IMG/VR virus record: IMGVR_UViG_2671180699_000003
Direction: 5' to 3' (one strand)
Source: a virus
Lineage: Duplodnaviria; Heunggongvirae; Uroviricota; Caudoviricetes
Length of the DNA: 18,126 bases
The translations under genes and the position numbers were made by a program. The notes below the pieces were generated by a model, which had not been told where the DNA came from, ran no database searches, and saw nothing but the letters and a program-made list of their open reading frames with translations. Below, piece by piece: positions 1 to 12,772 of the stretch (position 1 is its first letter; every line of letters starts with the position of its first letter).

Positions 1-756
1 TTGAGTGCGGGACGCCTGAATAAAAAATCTCTGGGTATCGTGATGTTGTTATCGGTTGGACTGCTTTTGGCGGGCTGTTCGGGTAGCAAATCATCCGATA
101 CAGGAACGTATTCCGGCTCCGTTTACACCGTGAAACGGGGGGATACGCTATATCGTATTTCGCGCACCACGGGAACCAGCGTAAAAGAACTGGCGCGACT
201 GAACGGCATTTCCCCCCCTTACACCATTGAAGTTGGTCAGAAACTAAAACTGGGTGGGGCGAAAAGTAGCAGTATTACACGTAAATCAACCGCCAAATCA
301 ACGACCAAAACCGCATCGGTTACACCGTCATCAGCGGTACCGAAATCATCCTGGCCGCCAGTAGGGCAACGTTGTTGGTTATGGCCAACGACAGGGAAAG
401 TTATCATGCCGTATTCGACAGCAGATGGCGGCAATAAAGGGATTGATATCTCAGCTCCACGGGGTACACCTATTTACGCCGCGGGTGCAGGAAAGGTGGT
501 GTATGTGGGCAACCAGCTGCGTGGCTACGGTAATCTCATCATGATTAAACACAGTGAAGATTACATTACGGCTTACGCCCATAATGACACGATGCTGGTA
601 AATAATGGGCAAAGCGTGAAGGCTGGGCAAAAAATCGCCACTATGGGGAGCACGGATGCGGCATCTGTTCGCCTGCATTTCCAGATTCGTTACCGTGCAA
701 CGGCAATTGATCCGCTACGTTACTTGCCGCCGCAGGGCAGCAAGCCAAAATGCTGA
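1..756 (+). CDS. ygeR: LysM domain / M23 peptidase family lipoprotein (YgeR-like), 251 aa, TTG start
   Basis: ORF 1..756 begins at TTG. Lipoprotein-type signal peptide with LLAGCSG lipobox; LysM-like segment (YTVKRGDTLYRISR...); Ser/Thr/Lys-rich linker; C-terminal M23-like region. Length and sequence match my recollection of E. coli YgeR, which lies next to glyU. Confidence 0.85.
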   Translation: MSAGRLNKKSLGIVMLLSVGLLLAGCSGSKSSDTGTYSGSVYTVKRGDTLYRISRTTGTSVKELARLNGISPPYTIEVGQKLKLGGAKSSSITRKSTAKSTTKTASVTPSSAVPKSSWPPVGQRCWLWPTTGKVIMPYSTADGGNKGIDISAPRGTPIYAAGAGKVVYVGNQLRGYGNLIMIKHSEDYITAYAHNDTMLVNNGQSVKAGQKIATMGSTDAASVRLHFQIRYRATAIDPLRYLPPQGSKPKC

Positions 757-3046: not shown

Positions 3047-3664
3047 TCAATTATCTTCCAGGCCGGATGCTATCAACGAAAGCCTCTCAAAAAACGCTGT
3101 AGCAGCCTTGTCCAAAGTTGAATAAGTACTGTATTCTCCGTGTTCGGGACCAACCACTACCCATGGTCGTCTTTTTGGGATTCGGGACTTCTCAGAAATC
3201 ACTGTTCCAGATATACCAATATCAATTGTTACACCTGTTATTATTTTCTCTTCATCTCTTTCCCTGAACTCAATTGCCATAAATGCCGTTTTTTTTCGTT
3301 TCCCGTTTTTAAAAAAATCAAATAAAGCAAAGCGATGCTCATTAAAATCAACACCCCATCGTCCTTCAGGATAAAGGGCATGAAAGTTGTCATTTACGCT
3401 CTGCATCGTCTCATAAGCTTTAACTTCTAAATCTCCATAGTGCATAGATACCGCGCAGGAGTCACTGGGTAACTGTATTTTCCCAAGATTGAAAACCTTT
3501 ACTGCTCCAGAACTATGGCATCTTGCCCGCAATTTATCCCCATTTATACTAATCGGAGAAATATTCCTTAATGTTCCGGGCTGGCTCCCTCCTAAGTAAA
3601 CGACTGTTAAAGATTGCTTATTTTCAATTGCATCAACTAATACATGCTCTACATTTTTATCCAT
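3047..3664 (-). CDS. hypothetical cargo protein, 205 aa, with a possible N-terminal WYL-like beta-barrel
   Basis: Start set at the ATG at 3664 (MDKNVEHV...), which has a GGGAGG SD 7 nt upstream, rather than the ORF-track start at 3691. The segment LTVVYLGGSQPGTLRNISPISINGDKLRARCHSSGAVKVFNLGKIQL resembles the WYL pattern by eye. AT-rich compared with its neighbours. Confidence 0.55.
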   Translation of the reverse strand: MDKNVEHVLVDAIENKQSLTVVYLGGSQPGTLRNISPISINGDKLRARCHSSGAVKVFNLGKIQLPSDSCAVSMHYGDLEVKAYETMQSVNDNFHALYPEGRWGVDFNEHRFALFDFFKNGKRKKTAFMAIEFRERDEEKIITGVTIDIGISGTVISEKSRIPKRRPWVVVGPEHGEYSTYSTLDKAATAFFERLSLIASGLEDN

Positions 3665-3665
3665 A

Positions 3666-3702
3666 ATAACCTCCCGATGAACAGGTATCATCAGGAGGTT
3701 AT
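3666..3702 (-). promoter_or_regulatory. 15-bp hairpin sequestering the SD of the 205-aa gene
   Basis: Inverted repeat ATAACCTCC(C/T)GATGA ... TCATC(A/G)GGAGGTTAT with a 7-nt loop. The GGGAGG SD sits in one arm and the start codon lies 1 nt beyond the stem. Confidence 0.5.
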
Positions 3703-3739
3703 AATAAAATATGATTATTTACTTTGATTGAATTTATTA

Positions 3740-4111
3740 CTATATGTAACAATCAATTTCTAAAGATACCCCCAACATTGCCAGACAACCGTCAATAAAC
3801 CCTTCAGCTTTCTGCAGTCTGATAACAACCTGATTAAGTGATATCCCCAGTTTTACCCCCAACGCCCGTAATGTAACCCCATACACATAATACATTTCCA
3901 GTAATTCGTATTGATACGGTTCCTTTTTCTTAAGAACTGTCATTGCAGAGCTAATGATCAGGCCATCGTCATCGCTACATTGCGGGCGGGATTTTACTTT
4001 CGAAGGAATTAATCCCTTAAAACCTGCAGCAACAGATGACCATTCCACATCCTCGTGATTATTTGCCACCCATGCCCCCCAACGTTCAAGAACCATTTGA
4101 ATATCACGCAT
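3740..4111 (-). CDS. quuD: late-gene antiterminator Q (QuuD-like), 123 aa
   Basis: Product MRDIQMVLERWGAW..NNHEDV.WSS.AAGFKGLI.SKVKSRPQC.DDDG... matches my recollection of DLP12 QuuD. ATG at 4111 has a GGAGA SD; the ORF-track start at 4126 is a TTG. Confidence 0.8.
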   Translation of the reverse strand: MRDIQMVLERWGAWVANNHEDVEWSSVAAGFKGLIPSKVKSRPQCSDDDGLIISSAMTVLKKKEPYQYELLEMYYVYGVTLRALGVKLGISLNQVVIRLQKAEGFIDGCLAMLGVSLEIDCYI

Positions 4112-4128
4112 CAACTTTCTCCACAAAA

Positions 4129-5124
4129 TCAGGCCAGCACGCCTATTGCCAGCGCACGATCGATAAAACGAAATATCAGCTCCAGCTGGGAGCCATACTT
4201 CTCTTCAAATGCCACGGTATCCGCATGCAGCTCGTCGTGATGCTTTCTGCACAAAGGCAACACAAAGAGGTCATGCGCTTTTGTACCCATTCCACCCTGA
4301 CCGTGGCCTATCAGGTGGTGGGGATCATCAGCAGGCTTTCCACAACATGCACACGGCTGTGTCTTAACCCAGCGCGTGTACTTTTCATTAACCCAGCGGC
4401 GGCGTTTTGGGCGTAACATAAAAGACTCCGGCGACTCCGGATCCACTTTCAGCGCCAGCACCTTTTTCGCTTTATCCTGGATGATGCTGGTGGCAGGAAC
4501 CGAAGGCACAAGGTCACTCTCCCGGGTGACAGACGGCACAACAGGTTTCGGTAATCTCAGCGCCTTACGGGCTGCGCTTTCAGGTAAGGCATCCGCCAGG
4601 TCATTACGAATCAGCCACCAGCACAGTTCCGGCATTGTCACGGCATGGTTATCATCAAAACCGAGATCCCGACGGACTACAGACAACACCCAGCGGGCAC
4701 AGTTATCCGTTGCCATTGATTCCAGCCGTTCCGTGAACTGATCGCGCAGCTGGTTATCGCAGTGCCAGCACAGACGGATTGCGCCCGGAGCGTGTCGCAT
4801 TGTGGTCATGTTCTCGCTGTGCCAGTCGGAATGAGGCCACTGGCAGCCTTTTTCACGAAGTAACCAGCTTTCAAGACATTCCACGCCACCAGCACGACGG
4901 ATCACTGCCTCATTGCGGAACACGGCCCGAACGGCAGGATCATCCGCCAGCGGTTGTGATACCGCCGGAACGGCACCACTGGCGAAAGATGAATAACGTT
5001 CCGGCTCAGGCTCCAGCAGGACACGCCCCTGCATAAACAGGGGCATCAGCTCTGAACCTGGCCTGAACAATACGATCCCCATACGCGGGGCAATTTCAGG
5101 GGTCAGTAGTGCTCTCACGGTCAC
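4129..5124 (-). CDS. DUF968-like nin-region protein with C-terminal HNH-like Cys/His motif, 331 aa
   Basis: C-terminal CACCGKPADDPHHLIGHGQGGMGTKAHDLFVLPLCRKHHDELH. GTG start. Sits between the KilA-N gene and Q. Confidence 0.5.
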   Translation of the reverse strand: MTVRALLTPEIAPRMGIVLFRPGSELMPLFMQGRVLLEPEPERYSSFASGAVPAVSQPLADDPAVRAVFRNEAVIRRAGGVECLESWLLREKGCQWPHSDWHSENMTTMRHAPGAIRLCWHCDNQLRDQFTERLESMATDNCARWVLSVVRRDLGFDDNHAVTMPELCWWLIRNDLADALPESAARKALRLPKPVVPSVTRESDLVPSVPATSIIQDKAKKVLALKVDPESPESFMLRPKRRRWVNEKYTRWVKTQPCACCGKPADDPHHLIGHGQGGMGTKAHDLFVLPLCRKHHDELHADTVAFEEKYGSQLELIFRFIDRALAIGVLA

Positions 5125-5125
5125 C

Positions 5126-5935
5126 TCAATGAACGGTATCGAGCAGCTTTAACAGCTCAGGGAATCGGGATTCGAAGAAATGCGGCTGCGTCTCACGCGG
5201 ATTTGCGGGACTGGTGATGTTCTTGCCGAACATGCAGCCTTTCGCCGTCAGCGACCAGAATTTTTTGATGTTGTTAATCCCGGTACGGCTGTATCGTTCG
5301 CGCTGCTCGACGATCCCCAGCTTCACCATCTGGTGATATGCCTGATTAGCCGTCAGGCGGATACCATACTGCTTCAGCAGTGCACTCAGCGACAGCGTCG
5401 GGCGGCTTGAGCCATCAGGCGCGTCAGCAGGTGCATCAATGGCATAGCGCGGTGCCAGATTCGGTAAGCCAACAGCCTCCTGGAGTTTCTGACAGGCACC
5501 AAGCACTGAAGAGTTAGACAGATTTAACTCCCGGCGCATAAAGTCCAGCAGGATCACGCCAGCCTGCATCTTGTCAGCAGCCTGTCCGGATAACTTTTCC
5601 GGCGCGCTGGTTACCATATCGAAAGTACGGATCACCTTCAGATGGAATGACGGGCTGATCCACATTGCATAGGCATACACCAGTTCCTTACAGACATACG
5701 TTCCCCGTTCATTTCCCCCATGAATCACACTCACCGGGTCAACACCCAAATTCTGGGTGTTGGTTAATTCATGAACAAGCTCAACAGTTTGTTGGCTGGA
5801 AAGAAACTTTCCTGGCTCCTTGGTTCTGGCATTTGCACCAGATGCTACTGCTGCGCGATGCAGATCGTTCAGGCTGTAACGCCCATAAGCATCACGACGA
5901 ACTTCAATACCATCAATGACCATCAGATTATTCAT
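5126..5935 (-). CDS. KilA-N domain protein (antirepressor-like), 269 aa
   Basis: N-terminal KilA-N-like region (VIDGIEVRRDAYGRYSLNDLHRAA...). GAGGAG SD 9 nt upstream of the ATG. Confidence 0.6.
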   Translation of the reverse strand: MNNLMVIDGIEVRRDAYGRYSLNDLHRAAVASGANARTKEPGKFLSSQQTVELVHELTNTQNLGVDPVSVIHGGNERGTYVCKELVYAYAMWISPSFHLKVIRTFDMVTSAPEKLSGQAADKMQAGVILLDFMRRELNLSNSSVLGACQKLQEAVGLPNLAPRYAIDAPADAPDGSSRPTLSLSALLKQYGIRLTANQAYHQMVKLGIVEQRERYSRTGINNIKKFWSLTAKGCMFGKNITSPANPRETQPHFFESRFPELLKLLDTVH

Positions 5936-5954: not shown

Positions 5955-6344
5955 TCAGGCAGCTGCACCCGCCGTTTTCTCGTACTTACTGATAGTGATC
6001 TCGACCTTCCCTTCCGGGATAACCGGTCCCCACTCCACCAGCATTCTTTTCACCTGACTGTCGTCTTCCCACACCCCCGCGTGGGTCAGGGCGTCAAACA
6101 GCGCCTTGTTATAGTTGTCCAGATCGCGGATCCTGTTATCCGGAGGAAACAACACGATCTCCACTGAAGCAGGTGCCGACGTTGGTTTCGGCAGACGACG
6201 TAACTGCTCAACTATTGCTGCACACGCCGCGCTCTGGAATTTGCGCCCCGCCGCGCTTATCAGGCTCTTACCTGCAAACGCCACTTTGTTGGGGTGTCGC
6301 CAGTACGTGTTCACGCTGGGCGGAAAAGGCAGTATTAGCTTCAT
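5955..6344 (-). CDS. rusA: RusA Holliday junction resolvase
   Basis: 129 aa with LPFPPSVNTYWRH and RDLDNYNKALFDALTHAGVWEDDSQV, matching the RusA family catalytic region. Confidence 0.85.
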   Translation of the reverse strand: MKLILPFPPSVNTYWRHPNKVAFAGKSLISAAGRKFQSAACAAIVEQLRRLPKPTSAPASVEIVLFPPDNRIRDLDNYNKALFDALTHAGVWEDDSQVKRMLVEWGPVIPEGKVEITISKYEKTAGAAA

Positions 6345-6667
6345 ACTTTCAGGCCCCTCTCATGTAACCAGTGGGCTGCACGCAACCTGGCGTTCTCCTC
6401 ACCGGCAAGCAGTGCGCGGATGATACCGACCGCCTCGCTGTCGTCGTCCTTCACCGCGGTATGAAGCGTGATGCCCCGGGCCACGCCACGCTTTATCGTG
6501 ATGACGCCTTTTTTCTCCAGTGCGCGAAGATGCTCCACCGCTGCATTCACTGAACGGTATCCCAGCATGGTTGCCACCTCCTGATTGGTTGGCGGGAAGC
6601 CACGTTCTTTCTGATAAGAAATCAGCATATCCAGCACCTGCTGCTGGCATTGAGTTAACGTCGTCAT
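6341..6667 (-). CDS. LexA N-terminal DNA-binding domain protein (no S24 peptidase domain), 108 aa
   Basis: QQQVLDMLISYQKERGFPPTNQEVATMLGYRSVNAAVEHLRALEKKGVITI closely parallels the LexA winged-helix N-terminus. ATGA overlap with rusA. Confidence 0.65.
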   Translation of the reverse strand: MTTLTQCQQQVLDMLISYQKERGFPPTNQEVATMLGYRSVNAAVEHLRALEKKGVITIKRGVARGITLHTAVKDDDSEAVGIIRALLAGEENARLRAAHWLHERGLKV

Positions 6668-7317
6668 GCCGCCATCTCCCTGACCAGTTTTTCTGCCTGC
6701 TGGCGAACCTGCGCCAGAAAGGCCTCACCACATGCCTCAAGTTCATCGCGCCCGATGTAGCTGATTGCCGGTCCCTTCCAGGTCTTGTCGAAAACAGCAA
6801 TAGCACCAGCGAAGAAAGCGCCTGTCGGCACCTGCTTCTCATCCTTCGGGATAAACCAGGCAGGCAGTTCAAAACCAATACGCCCGCGAATAAAAGCAAT
6901 ATGATCTGCATCTTCCGGCCACCACACTTCGCTGGTGGCAGCTTTGATCAGGAAAACATAGCGCCCGCCTTTATCACGCATGGCACTGGCATGCTTCATG
7001 ATGTAACGCATGCCGGTGATGTATTGCCCCTCATGCTGACTGGCGCGGCTGTATGGGGGATTACCAAAGGCAGCACCTTTAAGCTCCGCAAGGCGTTCTG
7101 ACCAGTCATGCGCCAGCGCGTTGTCTTCCGCCGTGTAATACGCAGCACATTTGGCGTTATCACCGTCAGTGAACAGATCCAGAACAAACGGGCCAAACAG
7201 GGTGTTAATTCCCCAGAAAATGTTGTCCGGCGTGCGCCACTGATCGCCCACTTCCTTCAGTTCATGGGCTGGTTTGTTCCGCAGTTCCGCCAGCGCCTGG
7301 CAATATTTATTACTCAT
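6664..7317 (-). CDS. phage Dam-like N6-adenine DNA methyltransferase, 217 aa
   Basis: NPPY catalytic motif (FGNPPYS). Start set at ATG 7317 (MSNKYCQ...), which overlaps the upstream stop as TAATG, rather than the GTG at 7350. Confidence 0.7.
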   Translation of the reverse strand: MSNKYCQALAELRNKPAHELKEVGDQWRTPDNIFWGINTLFGPFVLDLFTDGDNAKCAAYYTAEDNALAHDWSERLAELKGAAFGNPPYSRASQHEGQYITGMRYIMKHASAMRDKGGRYVFLIKAATSEVWWPEDADHIAFIRGRIGFELPAWFIPKDEKQVPTGAFFAGAIAVFDKTWKGPAISYIGRDELEACGEAFLAQVRQQAEKLVREMAA

Positions 7318-7805
7318 TAAGCCCCCACGTAATTCCCTGAGAGATACCACTCTTCACCTGATGCAGCCCGCTTACTGCTTTTCCGTAAACACCGTTCACG
7401 ACGCGCCAGAAAATTGTTTCGTTCTGGCTGGGAGTGGCTTTCACGGAATGCCGCCATCCACACCGTTGCAGCACGACGGTATAAGCCCCTCGACTCCAGT
7501 TCTTCAGCCTGGCGGGTCAGGCACAAAATCACCCGGGGGTCGTTAGTGCCGACATAGAACTTGCGCACAGGTCTGGTTTCACGAACTGGTTGTGGTTCCG
7601 GCTCCTGCGCTCTCTCAGTCAGGCGCGAGAAATGTCTGCGTGTATCTCCTTCACAACGGTGAGCCACACGCCCACTCTGACGTAACTTGCTTGCTGACTG
7701 CAGAACGCGCTGCCGTGAGTAACCTGCAAAAGCATCCGCAATGTCTCCGGAAGTACAGCCCGGATGGGCTTCAATGAATTTCTGAACTTCATTCAAAATA
7801 CTCAT
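7317..7805 (-). CDS. PerC-family transcriptional regulator-like protein, 162 aa
   Basis: C-terminal LESRGLYRRAATVWMAAF resembles the PerC/Pch signature (GLWRRAA..W). ATG at 7805 has a GGGGTGA SD; the ORF-track start at 7811 is a GTG. Confidence 0.5.
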   Translation of the reverse strand: MSILNEVQKFIEAHPGCTSGDIADAFAGYSRQRVLQSASKLRQSGRVAHRCEGDTRRHFSRLTERAQEPEPQPVRETRPVRKFYVGTNDPRVILCLTRQAEELESRGLYRRAATVWMAAFRESHSQPERNNFLARRERCLRKSSKRAASGEEWYLSGNYVGA

Positions 7806-7807
7806 GC

Positions 7808-8800
7808 TCACCCCCTGAATCCTGCCGGGATCTGGCTGTAGTCCACGTTGTCGTAACTGGATTTGAAATATGGGTCTTCGCGTTTTTCTGTGTATGTGCT
7901 GACGGACGGCGATAAGCGCAGGGAAAGCTCATCCCATTTTTCCCGCAGCTTCGACGGGCTGAGCACGTTACGGCACCAGAACGGATCGCGGCTGACGCGG
8001 CTGTACATCTCGCAGATTTGTTTGTGAGTACGACCATCCTGCACACACATCAGGCGAATTTCGTTTGCCCAGGCTGTCCAGTTCGGTTCTTTGGGACGAA
8101 CCACCTCGCCGTCACATTCGGCGGCCTGCTCGTACAGGGCGATGATTTTTTTCCAGAGCCACTGTGCGCAGGTCAAATCATCCTGCGTTCCCCACTGGCG
8201 CTTTTTAGGGCTGAATACAACCGCATCAGGATGGCGAGTTAAAAACTCCTGTTCAGCCGTTTGCGTGTCCGGTTGCGAAGCGTCCGGACGAGAAGAGGTT
8301 TTATTCTCTGTAGTAATCTCTGTTGTATTCTCTGTAAGATCATTGGGCCATTTTGACCCGATGACAGCGTGTCGTTTTGAACCAATGGATCGTGTCATTT
8401 TGCGCCCATCCATCAGGTCACTTTGACCCGATGGAGAAGTGCATTTTGACCTGATGGATTCGTTCACTTTGACCTCTTCTAAAAGCTCACTTTCATAGTT
8501 GATCGTGTAGAAGTTGGTCATGTCACGCTTCGATTTATTGAGTTGCTCGCGACGCAAAACCCCAAGTGATTTCAGGCTTGCAAATGTGCGTTTCAGAGTG
8601 GACTCTGACCAGAACGGAAACTGCTCCAGCCACTGTTCTGTCGTGTTATAAACCCAGCGAATTCCGCCATGCTCAGTGCCTGAATTCGTTTCATTCAGCC
8701 AGTAATGAAGCTGCTGCAACACAATTGCCTCATTCAGACCAATACGGCATGCAAGATCACGATTTATCACAATGGGCTGGGATGTCATTAACAGGCTCAT
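7808..8800 (-). CDS. replication initiation protein (lambda O-like organizer with a conserved phage C-terminal domain), 330 aa
   Basis: N-terminal winged-helix replication-protein motif and a conserved phage C-terminal region (PFWCRNVLSPSKLREKWDELS). Iterons lie inside the coding sequence. GGAGGTG SD upstream. Confidence 0.7.
   Translation of the reverse strand: MSLLMTSQPIVINRDLACRIGLNEAIVLQQLHYWLNETNSGTEHGGIRWVYNTTEQWLEQFPFWSESTLKRTFASLKSLGVLRREQLNKSKRDMTNFYTINYESELLEEVKVNESIRSKCTSPSGQSDLMDGRKMTRSIGSKRHAVIGSKWPNDLTENTTEITTENKTSSRPDASQPDTQTAEQEFLTRHPDAVVFSPKKRQWGTQDDLTCAQWLWKKIIALYEQAAECDGEVVRPKEPNWTAWANEIRLMCVQDGRTHKQICEMYSRVSRDPFWCRNVLSPSKLREKWDELSLRLSPSVSTYTEKREDPYFKSSYDNVDYSQIPAGFRG
8349..8476. 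repeat. origin iterons: about five direct repeats CAYTTTGACCYGATGGA at 23-24 bp spacing
   Basis: Copies at 8349, 8373 (degenerate), 8419, 8442 and 8465 (partial), plus an inverted partial copy TCCATCAGGTCA at 8409-8420. They fall in the linker region of the O-like gene, as in lambda ori. Confidence 0.65.
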
Positions 8801-9021
8801 GCCGCACCTCCGAGATGCTTCATGTTTTTTCCGGAGCGAAAGGCTATAAGCGGCATACTGACGCGGTAATTACGGCCCAGCGGTTCACAAATCACCTTCT
8901 GACATTCACGGTCAACCAGGCTAACACGTAGAACATGCCCTGCAGGCGTGGTGTACCACTGACCGGGGCGAGGACAACGGAAAGTCTGATTGGTAAATCG
9001 TTTGAAAATATTCCGGATCAT
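8797..9021 (-). CDS. hypothetical protein, 74 aa
   Basis: AAGGGGG SD 5 nt upstream; ATGA overlaps with both neighbours. Confidence 0.4.
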   Translation of the reverse strand: MIRNIFKRFTNQTFRCPRPGQWYTTPAGHVLRVSLVDRECQKVICEPLGRNYRVSMPLIAFRSGKNMKHLGGAA

Positions 9022-10166
9022 TTGCGCCCCCTTACCTCTGAAGAGTTCAGCGACGAATGAATAAGACGGGCAAGAAATGCCGCATCGTTAATTCGGTCAT
9101 ACAGACTTACAGCCAGAGGTGATTCAGCTTTTTCCAGCATGGGATAAAGCTGCTGCAACCAGACCTGATGAATTGATGAAATGTAGGAATAGAGAACGCT
9201 GGCGTTATGTGCAACGTCGCTCGGTACAGCGGGCTTTGAAAGCTGTTTCTCCATCTGGTTAAAGGCATTGATGTATGCCTCTTTGAACTGGGCAGCACGT
9301 TTACCCGTGAAACCCATAGCAAGAAACGCAAAGCCGTCGCGGGTTATTTGATAGCAAGGTAGTTTGCGGCCTGTGCAATCGGTGTAATCACTCACCGAAA
9401 AATTGCGGGCAGTGAATGATGCGGAACATTCAAGCGTGCGGATCTTTTTCAGTACATCGTCATGACGTTTGGAGAAGAAGTTGGCAACAGCCAGGGATGA
9501 AGTAACAGCCTGACCATCAACGATGGCAATTTCAGGTTGAGTGAGGGTTGGGATCGTAGCCATGATGGCAGTCTCCGATAACAGTGAATTACCTTCACCA
9601 CCGGAAACGCCAATTTCGCTGGTGGTGAACTGAACGGGGTTGGCGTAACCGGCGTTATCGGAAACCGGCGCACCTTTCGGTGCCCCCGTCCAGCCCACCA
9701 TAATTTGGGTGTGCACAGACGCAGACGATAAAAAAGACGCTGGCGCGTCATATATCGCCGATAACATTTCCAGGACGCCAATCCCGACACCCGCTTTATA
9801 AGGTGCCTGAACAGTGTAACGTCCCGGAATGGCAGAATCAATGTGCTGGTGGTCCTTCACACTCAACAAAATCACGCCTGAATTTCCACAAAGGACTAAA
9901 GCACTCATGCGGGTAGTCTTTGCGAAGATAGATAACGCGCTGTGTTTCTGGCTCCCAACGAATAACATGGACATAAAGCCCTCTTCCGTCACGAAACCAG
10001 CGGTTAAGTTCCTGCACAACTCGCCCCCCACAGTCAGGTAAAGTTCTCTGTGGTTACTTACAGCCAGGTGATTTGGTAATCTGCATTCATGCCGTAACAA
10101 CAGGTGTTCAGCGACGCTGACCACCAGCTGTTGCGACAAACGGTTATTTGCCGTTAAACTGTTCAT
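9018..10166 (-). CDS. Rha-family phage regulatory protein with a ~200-aa N-terminal extension (382 aa; alternative internal start at 9563 gives 181 aa)
   Basis: Rha-like motifs QAVTSSLAVANFFSKRHDDVLKKIR and ITRDGFAFLAMGFTGKRAAQFKEAYINAF begin at residue ~202. The ATG at 9563 has a GGAGA SD, but the frame stays open upstream to an ATG at 10166 that overlaps the upstream stop (ATGA). Confidence 0.55.
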   Translation of the reverse strand: MNSLTANNRLSQQLVVSVAEHLLLRHECRLPNHLAVSNHRELYLTVGGELCRNLTAGFVTEEGFMSMLFVGSQKHSALSIFAKTTRMSALVLCGNSGVILLSVKDHQHIDSAIPGRYTVQAPYKAGVGIGVLEMLSAIYDAPASFLSSASVHTQIMVGWTGAPKGAPVSDNAGYANPVQFTTSEIGVSGGEGNSLLSETAIMATIPTLTQPEIAIVDGQAVTSSLAVANFFSKRHDDVLKKIRTLECSASFTARNFSVSDYTDCTGRKLPCYQITRDGFAFLAMGFTGKRAAQFKEAYINAFNQMEKQLSKPAVPSDVAHNASVLYSYISSIHQVWLQQLYPMLEKAESPLAVSLYDRINDAAFLARLIHSSLNSSEVRGRK

Positions 10167-10726
10167 GCGTTAGTTTCTCCACAGACACAAAACGCCACGA
10201 CGCCCGGAGCTGCACACTCGCGGGCGTCACTCTTTTCTGGAGCGCAAAAGATTTTGTAGACCAGTGCTGCATGCTCCTGGAGCTTCGAAATTGACAGATA
10301 CAACTCATCATTAATTGCTGTCTGCTCGTGTGGCTCCACTACCCCATCTTCGATTGCCGAACGAATCTGCTTTGAGTAACTCCCGATCTGTTCGATGACT
10401 TCCAGCAGGCGCTGGTTTATATCGGCGTTCTCTACTTCCTCAAGTTCAGGAAGCGATACAAACACCCCACCAGCAGACTGTGCGACAGCATCCGCAATGT
10501 AGTGAGTGCCAGCCGCGCGCTGTAAAATCATTGCCCATCCCAGCGGGAAAATCTGATCGCCATCTGCACGAAGGCGGTTGAATAAAGCGTTCTCTGTTAC
10601 ATCCAGCCACTCAGCAGCTTCAGCGTAACCTCCCGGCAACGCCGCGATAGTTTTTCTGACAGCTTTCACGTACCACTCAGGCTGTTTTTCTACTTTCCAG
10701 TGATGCTTACCCACGGTTAGCCTCAT
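10163..10726 (-). CDS. hypothetical regulator at the CII position (possibly YdaT-like), 187 aa
   Basis: First gene after cro. HTH-like segment GGYAEAAEWLDVTENALFNRLR followed by a predicted helical region. A GTG at 10714 with a GAGG SD is a possible alternative start. Confidence 0.35.
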   Translation of the reverse strand: MRLTVGKHHWKVEKQPEWYVKAVRKTIAALPGGYAEAAEWLDVTENALFNRLRADGDQIFPLGWAMILQRAAGTHYIADAVAQSAGGVFVSLPELEEVENADINQRLLEVIEQIGSYSKQIRSAIEDGVVEPHEQTAINDELYLSISKLQEHAALVYKIFCAPEKSDARECAAPGVVAFCVCGETNA

Positions 10727-10757
10727 CGTTCTGTGGTTAAAAATTGAAGGTGTTCTG

Positions 10758-10958
10758 TTAATCTTTCGGATAGATATCCGGTCTTAAGTCAGATTTCGTA
10801 ATTGCACCTGACGTGCATTGCTCAAGTTTTTTAGCCAGCACAAAACTGGCTTTTTTATAACCATTGAAAACCAGCCGTAAGTAGCCTGGTGTTGAGCCAA
10901 CTTTTCCGGCCAACTCGCCCTGCTGTTCTTTGGTTAAAGAGTCCCAATACGCTTTCAT
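10758..10958 (-). CDS. Cro-like repressor, 66 aa
   Basis: Internal ATG at 10958 with a GGAGG SD; the longer ORF-track version overlaps cI. Small HTH protein diverging from the cI-like gene. Confidence 0.65.
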   Translation of the reverse strand: MKAYWDSLTKEQQGELAGKVGSTPGYLRLVFNGYKKASFVLAKKLEQCTSGAITKSDLRPDIYPKD

Positions 10959-11048
10959 ACAATATGTACCTCCGATATACATATTACATGATTGAGATGA
11001 ACCTTCAAGATACTTGTACCCTATCGGTACAAAGGTTTTAATTTCGTT
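10959..11048. promoter_or_regulatory. immunity-region OR: divergent PR/PRM candidates with a palindromic operator
   Basis: Palindrome TTGTACC-ctatc-GGTACAA at 11014-11032. PRM candidate TTGTAC-N17-TTTAAT ending at a leaderless cI ATG. PR candidate on the minus strand: TTGAAG-N17-TAATAT. Confidence 0.45.
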
Positions 11049-11723
11049 ATGAAAACAGTCCATGACATCCGGCGGTCTAACGCCAGAAAACTGAGAGATG
11101 GTGTTGGCGGGAATTCTTCCTTTGCCACCATGATTGATCGCGAGCCAACCCAGACCAGCAGGTTTATGGGAGATGGTGCTACTAAAAATATCGGTGACAG
11201 CATGGCACGGCACATCGAAAAATGTTTCGACCTGCCTGTCGGATGGCTTGATCAAGAACACCAGACAACAAACATCACAAAAAAACCTGATGTTTCAATT
11301 ACTAACAAACAAATAACGTTAGTCCCTGTCATATCATGGGTACAGGCCGGAGCATGGAAAGAAGTTGGCTATTCTGAGGTTGATTTGAGCACAGCAGAAA
11401 CTTATCCCTGCCCTGTACCCTGTGGCGAAATGACTTATATCTTGCGGGTGATTGGTGATTCAATGATTGATGAGTACCGCCCGGGAGACATGATTTTTGT
11501 TGATCCTGAAGTCCCTGCCTGCCACGGTGACGACGTTATTGCATTGATGCACGATACAGGCGAAACCACCTTCAAGCGGTTGATAGAAGATGGAACACAG
11601 CGTTACCTCAAAGCATTAAACCCAAACTGGCCTGAACCTTACATTAAGATCAACGGTAATTGCTCTATAATTGGTACAGTGATTTTCTCAGGAAAACCAA
11701 GAAGATACAAAATAAAGGCCTAA
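11049..11723 (+). CDS. CI-like phage repressor (N-terminal HTH, C-terminal S24 LexA-type autopeptidase), 224 aa
   Basis: C-terminal GDSM (Ser nucleophile) and TFKRL (Lys) S24 motifs; HTH-like N-terminus; divergent from cro. Confidence 0.85.
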   Translation: MKTVHDIRRSNARKLRDGVGGNSSFATMIDREPTQTSRFMGDGATKNIGDSMARHIEKCFDLPVGWLDQEHQTTNITKKPDVSITNKQITLVPVISWVQAGAWKEVGYSEVDLSTAETYPCPVPCGEMTYILRVIGDSMIDEYRPGDMIFVDPEVPACHGDDVIALMHDTGETTFKRLIEDGTQRYLKALNPNWPEPYIKINGNCSIIGTVIFSGKPRRYKIKA

Positions 11724-11734
11724 TCAATATTTAT

Positions 11735-11757
11735 AACCTGCTTCGGCAGGTTTTTTT
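11735..11757 (+). terminator. rho-independent terminator after cI
   Basis: Stem CCTGC / loop TTCG / stem GCAGG followed by TTTTTTT. Confidence 0.55.
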
Positions 11758-11761
11758 ATAC

Positions 11762-11795
11762 TTGACAATGTACCCTTGAGATACATAATGTATCT
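11762..11795 (+). promoter_or_regulatory. pL-like promoter with overlapping operator palindrome (OL)
   Basis: Consensus -35 TTGACA at 11762-11767, 16-nt spacer, -10 CATAAT at 11784-11789. Perfect palindrome AGATACAT-a-ATGTATCT at 11779-11795 overlaps the -10. Confidence 0.55.
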
Positions 11796-12226
11796 AAAAG
11801 AAACATAACACAGGCAAGATTAAACTAAATTTGGTTGTAACACGGCGTATGGCACATGCGTCGTTAGCGGTCTGGGGACGTTAAAGGGGACAATCCACTC
11901 CTTGCTCGAGCAAACAAACCAGGTAGCCGGAATGTGCAAGTCAATGATGATGCTGATAAGACGCCTAACCAGCGTGGCGATTCGGTTTGACGCCTGGGAA
12001 GAGACCAGGGTGCAACGATGAGGGCATTTATGGAACCGCGACAAAGTGTGGTGCCGTAACTGGCTAAGTGCTCTCAGCGTTGTGGTGAATGCGCAGGCTG
12101 ATGCGCGAAAGACATTGCAGCTATTGCGGAAAAGAGCTGTTCGGCGGGGCAATTAAACGCCCGTGAGAGTCTGAAATAACCGCAAGCCGGAGATCAGCAC
12201 CGGTCACCACAACAGCCACTGCTTTG

Positions 12227-12272
12227 GCGGTACCAGTTTGTACACTTGCTTCCGGCTGGTACCGCTCTTTTT
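12227..12272 (+). terminator. terminator-like hairpin in the pL leader
   Basis: 10-bp stem GCGGTACCAG ... CTGGTACCGC with a 19-nt loop, followed by TCTTTTTA. Confidence 0.4.
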
Positions 12273-12409
12273 ACAAAACAGAGAAGAGCATCACCGGACG
12301 ACGGGCTCATAACCCAATCCATCCGGGCGGCTGCCACCGCAGGTGTTCTTCTCTGTTTTGTGGAGAAACTAACCGACCTTGCAGGGTCGATATGATGAGG
12401 AGCAGCAAA

Positions 12410-12772
12410 ATGGCTAGCGAACGCAGTACTGATGTGCAGGCATTTATCGGGGAGCTGGACGGCGGCGTATTTGAAACCAAAATCGGCGCAGTTCTCAGTG
12501 AAGTCGCTTCCGGTGTGATGAACACGAAAACCAAAGGTAAGGTCTCGCTCAACCTGGAAATCGAACCATTTGATGAGAACCGTGTGAAAATCAAACACAA
12601 ACTCTCATATGTTCGCCCGACTAACCGCGGGAAAATTTCCGAAGAAGACACCACCGAAACACCGATGTATGTCAATCGCGGTGGTCGCCTGACTATTCTG
12701 CAGGAAGACCAGGGACAATTACTGACTCTTGCCGGTGAACCTGACGGAAAACTACGCGCAGCAGGTCATTAA
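12410..12772 (+). CDS. yfdP: YfdP-like hypothetical prophage protein, 120 aa
   Basis: ATG at 12410 with a GAGGAG SD; the upstream TTG extension is rejected. Length and position (immediately before a YfdQ-like gene) match K-12 CPS-53 yfdP. Confidence 0.5.
   Translation: MASERSTDVQAFIGELDGGVFETKIGAVLSEVASGVMNTKTKGKVSLNLEIEPFDENRVKIKHKLSYVRPTNRGKISEEDTTETPMYVNRGGRLTILQEDQGQLLTLAGEPDGKLRAAGH

Follow-up and report, generated by a model that had tools for sequence, protein, structure and literature searches.

yfdN, a common early-operon prophage gene of Escherichia coli, combines a predicted winged helix with a PerC/ANR-type three-helix module

Results and discussion

The gene considered here occupies positions 7317 to 7805 of a DNA stretch of 18,126 nucleotides (nt) from a virus of the Caudoviricetes (IMG/VR record IMGVR_UViG_2671180699_000003); the whole stretch is referred to as the window. 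The open reading frame (ORF) is yfdN, a known prophage gene, and it belongs to the early operon of a lambdoid prophage of the CPS-53/SfV/mEp460 type, in the region equivalent to nin. We consider it somewhat probable that YfdN is an early phage regulator in which a winged helix targets DNA and a module of the PerC/ANR type contacts another regulator or a nucleoid protein. In such a scheme, prophage induction or infection would be followed by transcription of yfdN as part of the rightward early operon, the winged helix would bring the protein to specific DNA sites, and the PerC/ANR-type module would contact a regulatory or nucleoid protein, with altered transcription of phage genes, and possibly of host genes, as the outcome. 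Our best guess for this partner is a protein of the H-NS family, because Pch proteins relieve silencing by H-NS and ANR proteins bind both H-NS and AraC-type activators. Pch was found to lower the binding of H-NS at LEE1, the activation being dependent on H-NS, StpA, Hha and YdgT (PMC4764244), and binding of ANR proteins to H-NS, Ler and AraC-family regulators has been described (PMC10148876).

Identity and distribution of yfdN

The window gene and yfdN of E. coli K-12, which lies in the cryptic prophage CPS-53/KpLE1, share 98% nucleotide and 96% amino acid identity over 162 amino acids. PHROG 1324 matches the window protein over its full length (amino acids 1-161, E 6.5e-78), and both the identity and the synteny with yfdM (dam) and yfdO (replication) place it in the YfdN orthologue group (PHROG 1324; RefSeq gene yfdN). 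The K-12 protein has the same length and both domains, with an O-like replication gene upstream and Dam downstream, but differs from the window allele by six amino acid changes, most of which are in or next to the linker between the domains. In addition, yfdM and yfdO, which flank the gene in K-12, are truncated there to pseudogenes, whereas the prophage module surrounding the window gene is intact. The gene is also found in the phages SfV, SfII, SfIV and mEp460, where orf40 of SfV and gp44 of mEp460 are orthologues with the same domains and the same neighbours, and near-identical copies are carried by Shiga toxin 2c (Stx2c)-converting phages of O157. By megablast, yfdN was detected in 2664 of 5426 complete E. 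coli genomes, at up to four places per genome.

In RefSeq, the product of yfdN is named 'PerC family transcriptional regulator', and a study from 2018 termed the gene 'the K12 unique PerC homologue' (PMC5931665). An earlier note on the window, made from its sequence, had presented the ORF as a PerC homologue that could link prophage carriage to host gene regulation; as the gene already bears the name yfdN and is already assigned to the PerC family in RefSeq and in PMC5931665, nothing about the finding is new. yfdN is present in about half of the complete E. coli genomes and represents a real annotation gap.

The ORF, for which the earlier note gave no strand, is real and is encoded on the minus strand. 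The Prokaryotic Genome Annotation Pipeline (PGAP) uses an alternative start, the GTG at 7811, located 6 nt upstream of the ATG at 7805 and resulting in a protein of 164 amino acids. We prefer the ATG because of a Shine-Dalgarno sequence (AGGGGG) 5 nt upstream of it and because the aligned methionine is the start in nearly all of 32 aligned family members. The ratio of nonsynonymous to synonymous substitution rates was 0.14-0.28 in informative pairs, with the changes concentrated in the linker; yfdN is thus under purifying selection.

A three-helix core shared with PerC and Pch

As grounds for giving up its assignment, the earlier note had named in advance the lack of a significant PerC-family match in a profile search. 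Such a match was obtained and membership in the family was confirmed: the Pfam PerC model (PF06069) matches YfdN with 36.2 bits, compared to a gathering score of 22.6 (E 7.2e-9), over amino acids 98-149 and model positions 5-56 of 90. BLASTP of YfdN retrieved PchE (E 5e-9), PchA (1e-6), PerC of enteropathogenic E. coli (EPEC; 9e-6) and PchD (1e-4), and hhalign of the YfdN family against a PerC/Pch profile gave a probability of 98.8% (E 1e-16), aligning YfdN 97-151 with PerC 5-59. Ten residues, A100, L103, E104, G107, R110, R111, A112, W116, R129 and C139, are invariant in YfdN, PerC, PchA, PchD, PchE and a plasmid-encoded PerC-family protein, so that the PerC core motif A-x2-L-E-x2-G-x2-R-R-A-x3-W ... 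R ... C is present at all ten positions. The signature GL(W/Y)RRAA..W, which had been noticed before and placed at the C-terminus, is indeed there as GLYRRAATVW (amino acids 107-116), but in the C-terminal half rather than at the very end of the protein. The alignment with PerC and Pch that had been suggested as a check confirmed the core through these ten positions, but extended only over PerC residues 5-59.

Compared to PerC of the EPEC plasmid pMAR2 and PchA-E of enterohaemorrhagic E. coli (EHEC) O157 Sakai, YfdN has a homologous three-helix core with 33-41% identity over 44-52 amino acids and is likewise carried on mobile elements. The differences are considerable. PerC residues 60-89 are without counterpart in YfdN, which therefore does not contain the whole PerC domain of about 90 amino acids, whereas the matches of PerC and PchA/D/E span the entire Pfam model. 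The C-terminal 30-45 residues of these proteins (...EIKxAV..EMGI..FRNY) are absent, and YfdN has instead a winged helix of 66 amino acids, a linker and a tail motif of its own, so that its 162 amino acids depart from the small single-domain format of PerC proteins (89-104 amino acids). Also, the genes of the Pch proteins compared here are not in a nin slot: pchA is a late-region gene of Sp4 near lysis genes, pchD is located in SpLE1 beside ibrA and ybdM, and pchE resides in Sp7.

As a side observation, pchD in SpLE1 of Sakai directly follows ibrA, which is annotated as phosphoadenosine phosphosulfate (PAPS) reductase, and ybdM (locus L007, 17943-20146). The nin region of lambda holds the PAPS-reductase-like ninC (locus L009, 3082-3954), and PerC-family genes may recur beside such genes.

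The PerC label raises the question whether YfdN is a bona fide PerC/Pch-type activator of ler and the enterocyte effacement locus (LEE), or of other host virulence genes, and thereby ties prophage carriage to virulence regulation, as implied by the earlier note. The homology at family level, including the fully conserved core motif, speaks for it, and PerC and PchA-C do activate LEE1 (PMC5931665; PMC4764244). Near-identical copies are present in Stx2c-converting phages of O157, and the authors of PMC5931665 removed yfdN from their K-12 ler-lacZ reporter strain. On the other hand, LEE activation was shown for PerC and PchA-C only, and YfdN has no equivalent of the C-terminal PerC-domain half that PerC and PchA-E conserve. 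A ler-lacZ fusion did not respond even to full-length PchD and changed less than 2-fold with PchE (PMC5931665), and a PerC-family protein encoded by a phage-inducible chromosomal island (PICI) represses LEE1 (PMC11773190). The distribution argues in the same direction. As virtually the entire window consists of prophage DNA, LEE carriage was assessed by population counts: compared to the 2664 genomes with yfdN, only 690 were matched by a ler probe, so that at least 1974 carriers (74%) are without ler/LEE, with the reservation that the probe comprises 43 nt and may miss divergent ler alleles. K-12 MG1655, which is known to have no LEE, is among these carriers, and the family reaches into prophages of Pantoea, Kosakonia and Kluyvera. 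We therefore regard LEE activation as extremely unlikely, and we do not expect YfdN to behave like a ler activator of the PchA/B/C type. Equating the PerC label with 'LEE activator' is to be avoided, since YfdN shares only the ANR-like half with these proteins and since members of the family activate LEE, do nothing or repress it. For virulence biology little changes: yfdN is a prophage gene of common occurrence, and LEE is absent from most hosts that carry it.

Resemblance to ANR regulators

The same three-helix module resembles the ANR family (Aar, Rnr, Cnr). The NCBIfam model ANR_neg_reg (NF033650) matches the C-terminal domain of YfdN with an E-value of 3.1e-5, but with 23.7 bits below the curated cut-off of 32; PerC and PchA/D/E give weaker matches to this model than YfdN. 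The ANR signature A10/E14/A22/W26/A29 (PMC4983702) corresponds to A100/E104/A112/W116/A119 of YfdN with identical spacing (A-x3-E-x7-A-x3-W-x2-A), and the three-helix model of YfdN superposes on that of a predicted phage ANR regulator with a root-mean-square deviation (rmsd) of 0.5 Å over 56 columns and a template modelling (TM) score of 0.91 (match rank 36). YfdN thus has both the fold, of about 55 amino acids, and the signature of ANR proteins, and as in these the domain ends after helix 3. We conclude that the module has homologues both in ANR (Aar-type) regulators and in the first half of PerC/Pch. Others have noticed the resemblance of PerC and ANR in the context of the LEE1-repressing PICI protein (PMC11773190). 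Neither a PerC nor an ANR domain of solved structure was found in a profile search of PDB sequences or with Foldseek. The shared core may generally serve to bind H-NS or other regulators.

ANR proteins differ from YfdN in being stand-alone proteins of less than 10 kDa (PMC4983702) that were reported from genomes also encoding activators of the AraC/XylS family. YfdN, in contrast, is a fusion of 162 amino acids with a winged helix, encoded in a phage replication/nin module without an AraC-family neighbour; a Pfam scan covering 20 ORFs of the window detected no AraC-family domain. These differences bear on the explanation that YfdN is an ANR-like anti-regulator whose module sequesters an AraC/XylS-type activator or H-NS/Ler by protein contact alone, with a net negative effect like Aar, Rnr and the PICI protein EcCIMP1_025, while the winged helix serves another purpose. 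Such a function would fit the match to the ANR model, which is stronger than for PerC/Pch, the identical spacing of the signature, the close superposition and the lack of the C-terminal half of PerC, which YfdN shares with ANR proteins; moreover, ANR-like behaviour is documented for a PerC-family protein (PMC11773190). Nevertheless, we hold it to be unlikely: in addition to the bit score below the cut-off, the single-domain format of ANR proteins and the lack of an AraC-family gene among the 20 ORFs scanned, the conservation of the fused winged helix argues for a function targeted to DNA.

The N-terminal winged helix and the linker

The N-terminal part of YfdN was assessed in an AlphaFold2 model built on 27 homologues, with a mean predicted local distance difference test (pLDDT) of 77. 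The predicted N-terminal domain has the topology helix-helix-helix-beta-hairpin, and Foldseek against the PDB returned winged-helix proteins (among them ArsR/SmtB, MecI/BlaI, MarR and PadR) with an rmsd of 1.4-3 Å over about 63 amino acids. The family profile searched against PDB sequences gave BlaI with an E-value of 2e-4 and MarR with 6e-4, the winged-helix matches ranging from 2e-4 to 3e-3. By sequence alone, the domain is weakly recognised (Pfam HTH_24 E 0.19; PHROG MarR 6e-5), and no Pfam helix-turn-helix (HTH) family reaches its threshold. The three helices, the beta-hairpin wing and the likeness to solved domains agree with a winged helix, the YfdN structure being a prediction and not a solved one. 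With MarR, BlaI, MecI and ArsR, the domain shares, as predicted, the order of elements and a basic recognition helix (amino acids 31-44 in YfdN), but it lacks the dimerisation helices and the ligand or sensor domains of these families. The predicted winged helix most likely binds DNA.

The earlier note had regarded the N-terminal approximately 90 amino acids as an added winged-helix region. This holds for amino acids 1-66, while residues 67-89 are a disordered linker; pLDDT is below 50 for amino acids 64-84, which are predicted to be disordered. For homology of the N-terminal domain to lambda Ren, the matches (PHROG 142, E 0.0039 over amino acids 1-68; hhalign of the family against lambda Ren, probability of 11.5%) are too weak, and they were taken as generic winged-helix resemblance.

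A number of points weigh against YfdN being a DNA-targeted early regulator. DNA binding by the winged helix is a prediction from the model, and the Foldseek E-values for the domain are all above 1e-3, which we attribute to its shortness. The partner of the three-helix module is a guess, and Pch may depend for its H-NS-related activity on the C-terminal half of PerC that YfdN lacks. A role in replication could instead be indicated by the strictly conserved position next to a replication initiator, and if the regulator were produced in lytic growth only, the time left for it to influence host genes would be short. Finally, our literature search retrieved no paper testing YfdN itself, its mentions being screens or strain constructions.

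The YfdN subfamily and its C-terminal tail

An exhaustive HMMER search over 1.84 billion representatives yielded 99 YfdN-related clusters, of which about 30 consist of proteins of 140-165 amino acids with both domains and with 23-48% identity to the window protein. These two-domain homologues keep the winged-helix framework, the PerC core and the tail motif, which recurs in most of them down to about 25% identity and is absent from PerC/Pch. Some of the relatives with the C-terminal domain only (about 90 amino acids) carry the PerC core plus tail without a winged helix. Relatives of YfdN are found in prophages of Shigella, Pantoea, Kosakonia and Kluyvera. The tail may serve as a linear partner-binding motif, a possibility we consider because the AlphaFold confidence is low there.

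These features allow for a more far-reaching proposal, in which YfdN-type proteins form a distinct class with a PerC/ANR 'regulator-binding' module tethered to DNA by a winged helix, a C-terminal peptide motif of their own and an integral place in a lambdoid replication module with one gene (O-like only). They could act either as DNA-targeted H-NS counter-silencers on phage DNA or as the missing adaptor between initiator and host replication. We put this forward as a speculation that is unlikely to hold; if it does, the stand-alone PerC, Pch and ANR proteins would derive from, or be related to, a housekeeping module of phages.

With regard to variation in the family, one protein of 214 amino acids (P0179) has two tandem winged helices before the PerC-type core, so the number of winged helices varies. 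Among the database entries with more than 90% identity, many represent yfdN alleles with a truncation or frameshift (P0123, P0124, P0101, P0094 and P0137), and pseudogenised copies appear to be common in cryptic prophages. N-terminal-only products of yfdN seem to have seeded the separate PHROG 23071. The existence of N-terminal-only and C-terminal-only PHROGs (23071 and 2608) was dismissed as proof of independent modules, since the N-terminal-only entries look like broken yfdN alleles. In UTI89, a five-gene prophage fragment including yfdN2 (4,997,073-4,999,597) was a reproducible hit in an over-expression screen for filamentation (PMC6206680); the effect was assigned to the fragment and not to a single gene, and the observation is not used as evidence here.

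Operon structure and prophage context

The coordinates of yfdN, its parts and its neighbours are collected in Table 1. The prophage origin and the nin-region placement proposed by the earlier note are borne out by the gene order on the minus strand from the cII-like gene to Q, the placement being correct because yfdN lies between the O-like initiator and Dam in the early gene order. The stop codon of the initiator is 2 nt ahead of the yfdN ATG, and the stop codon of yfdN overlaps the Dam start codon by 1 nt, an overlap annotated likewise by PGAP in L002, a prophage whose yfdN allele is the closest one. A scan of minus-strand positions 6000 to 11800 gave no sigma-70-like promoter, and the dam promoter annotated within SfV orf40 was not detected in the window at the scan threshold. 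Due to the start/stop coupling and the lack of a promoter-like site, yfdN is most simply part of the early rightward transcript; the junctions and the promoter scan fit co-transcription and translational coupling in the early operon.

Table 1. Positions of yfdN, its predicted domains and motifs, neighbouring genes and adenine methylase genes following YfdN homologues. Positions refer to the window unless a locus is named.
Feature	Position	Strand	Remarks
yfdN coding sequence	7317..7805	-	162 amino acids; ATG 7805; stop TAA 7319-7317; from ORF list and sequence
Predicted winged helix-turn-helix domain, amino acids 1-66	7608..7805	-	helices 3-13, 19-25 and 31-44; strands 47-52 and 55-60; pLDDT 82-91
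Variable Pro/Glu-rich linker, amino acids 67-89	7539..7607	-	most variable, indel-rich stretch in family alignments
PerC-core/ANR-like three-helix domain, amino acids 90-148	7362..7538	-	helices 90-105, 109-122 and 126-148 (predicted); pLDDT ~90
GLYRRAATVW signature, amino acids 107-116	7458..7487	-	turn between helices 1 and 2 and start of helix 2; from translation
C-terminal tail, amino acids 149-162	7320..7361	-	motif W-x-L-[AS]-G-x-[YF]-x-G, here WYLSGNYVG; pLDDT <50
Initiator/yfdN junction	7803..7822	-	upstream stop TGA 7810-7808, Shine-Dalgarno AGGGGG and yfdN ATG; minus strand reads ttcagggggtgagcATGagt
yfdN/Dam TAATG overlap	7315..7319	-	yfdN stop and Dam start codon; Dam coding sequence 6664-7317
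O-like/DnaD-like replication initiator	7808..8800	-	330 amino acids; PHROG 391 'replication initiation O-like', E 1e-101
Dam methyltransferase	6664-7317	-	Pfam PF05869, E 1e-45
Small ORF	8797-9021	-	
Ash/Rha	9018-10166	-	382 amino acids; Ash-family domain 117-212, Rha domain 222-307; between cII-like and replication genes
cII-like gene	10163-10726	-	
cI-type repressor	11049-11723	+	
LexA DNA-binding domain protein	6341-6667	-	
RusA	5955-6344	-	
KilA-N	5126-5935	-	
DUF968/HNH	4129-5124	-	
Antiterminator Q	3740-4126	-	128 amino acids; PF06530
Methylase after YfdN homologue: Dam, PF05869	window 6664-7317; mEp460; L057 4444-5637	- (window)	SfV gene named dam
Methylase after YfdN homologue: D12 (MethyltransfD12), PF02086	L011 4444-5268; L050 4511-5269		
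Methylase after YfdN homologue: MT-A70, PF05063	L010 4471-5139; L069 3926-4585		

In addition to the window, an initiator is encoded directly upstream of the YfdN homologue in seven loci (SfV, mEp460, L010, L011, L064, L068 and L069), the homologues being 26-66% identical; those of Kluyvera are an exception with RecT upstream. No P-, DnaC- or DnaB-type gene was found in the replication modules of the window (7808-10726, minus strand), SfV (L077, 1779-4698) and mEp460 (L078, 4501-7727), and in lambda, P and ren occupy the slot held by yfdN in the window. YfdN might hence be a replication accessory to the O-like initiator that aids origin recognition or recruits the host helicase or its loader. 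The start/stop coupling to the initiator, the lack of a loader or helicase gene in these modules and the common occurrence of winged helices in replication proteins, with RPA32 and replisome organizers among the matches, are in line with such a role. This evidence, however, is positional only; YfdN resembles no helicase loader in sequence or fold, the comparison with lambda Ren is weak (hhalign 11.5%; PHROG Ren-like E 0.004), the Kluyvera homologue follows RecT and not an initiator, and the sole significant relatives of the C-terminal domain are transcription regulators. We consider the replication role rather unlikely.

The gene following the YfdN homologue often encodes an adenine methylase, which belongs to one of three unrelated Pfam families (Table 1) and is missing in L064, L068, L070 and one E. 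coli genome. This suggests that the 'methylase slot' is conserved and filled by analogous genes. The recurrence of methylases of three families at this position, together with the overlapping stop and start codons of yfdN and dam and a weak full-length match of the family profile to a PapI-type regulator (2htj, E 0.004), could be explained if YfdN were a partner or controller of the downstream methyltransferase, either as a C-protein-like regulator or as a PapI-like, methylation-dependent DNA binder. We judge this very unlikely, as the methylase is missing in the loci named above, lambdoid mosaicism normally includes the exchange of analogous genes at a given slot and the PapI match is no better than those to many other winged helices. 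As a further argument against it, PADLOC assigned no role in a defence system to YfdN, for which it returned no match; only the neighbouring Dam matches methylase models, and a defence function was therefore rejected. A DNA-targeted early regulator remains our preferred reading of YfdN.

Some further observations concern the surrounding genes. In the RefSeq entry of SfV (L077, NC_003444), dam (4698-5351) is labelled 'phosphoadenosine phosphosulfate reductase', and the same label is found beside yfdN in phage Kati (PP925833); this appears to be a mislabelling of the PF05869 Dam methylase that has been propagated. A protein of 214 amino acids (PHROG 8498) follows Q (window 3047-4126, minus strand). 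The prophage L002 has an antitermination protein of about 250 amino acids instead of the PF06530 Q of the window and, therefore, the late-control module is mosaic relative to the yfdN module. Two ORFs of 110 and 134 amino acids just beyond cI (11820-12598, minus strand) have no Pfam match, one of them matching PHROG 3651; this position is typical for morons expressed in lysogeny or exclusion genes. Whole-window megablast matches to E. coli genomes all start at 1313, and the ORF at 1-756 (plus strand) resembles peptidase/endolysin-type proteins (PHROG); positions 1-1313 may be a module junction or the prophage boundary.

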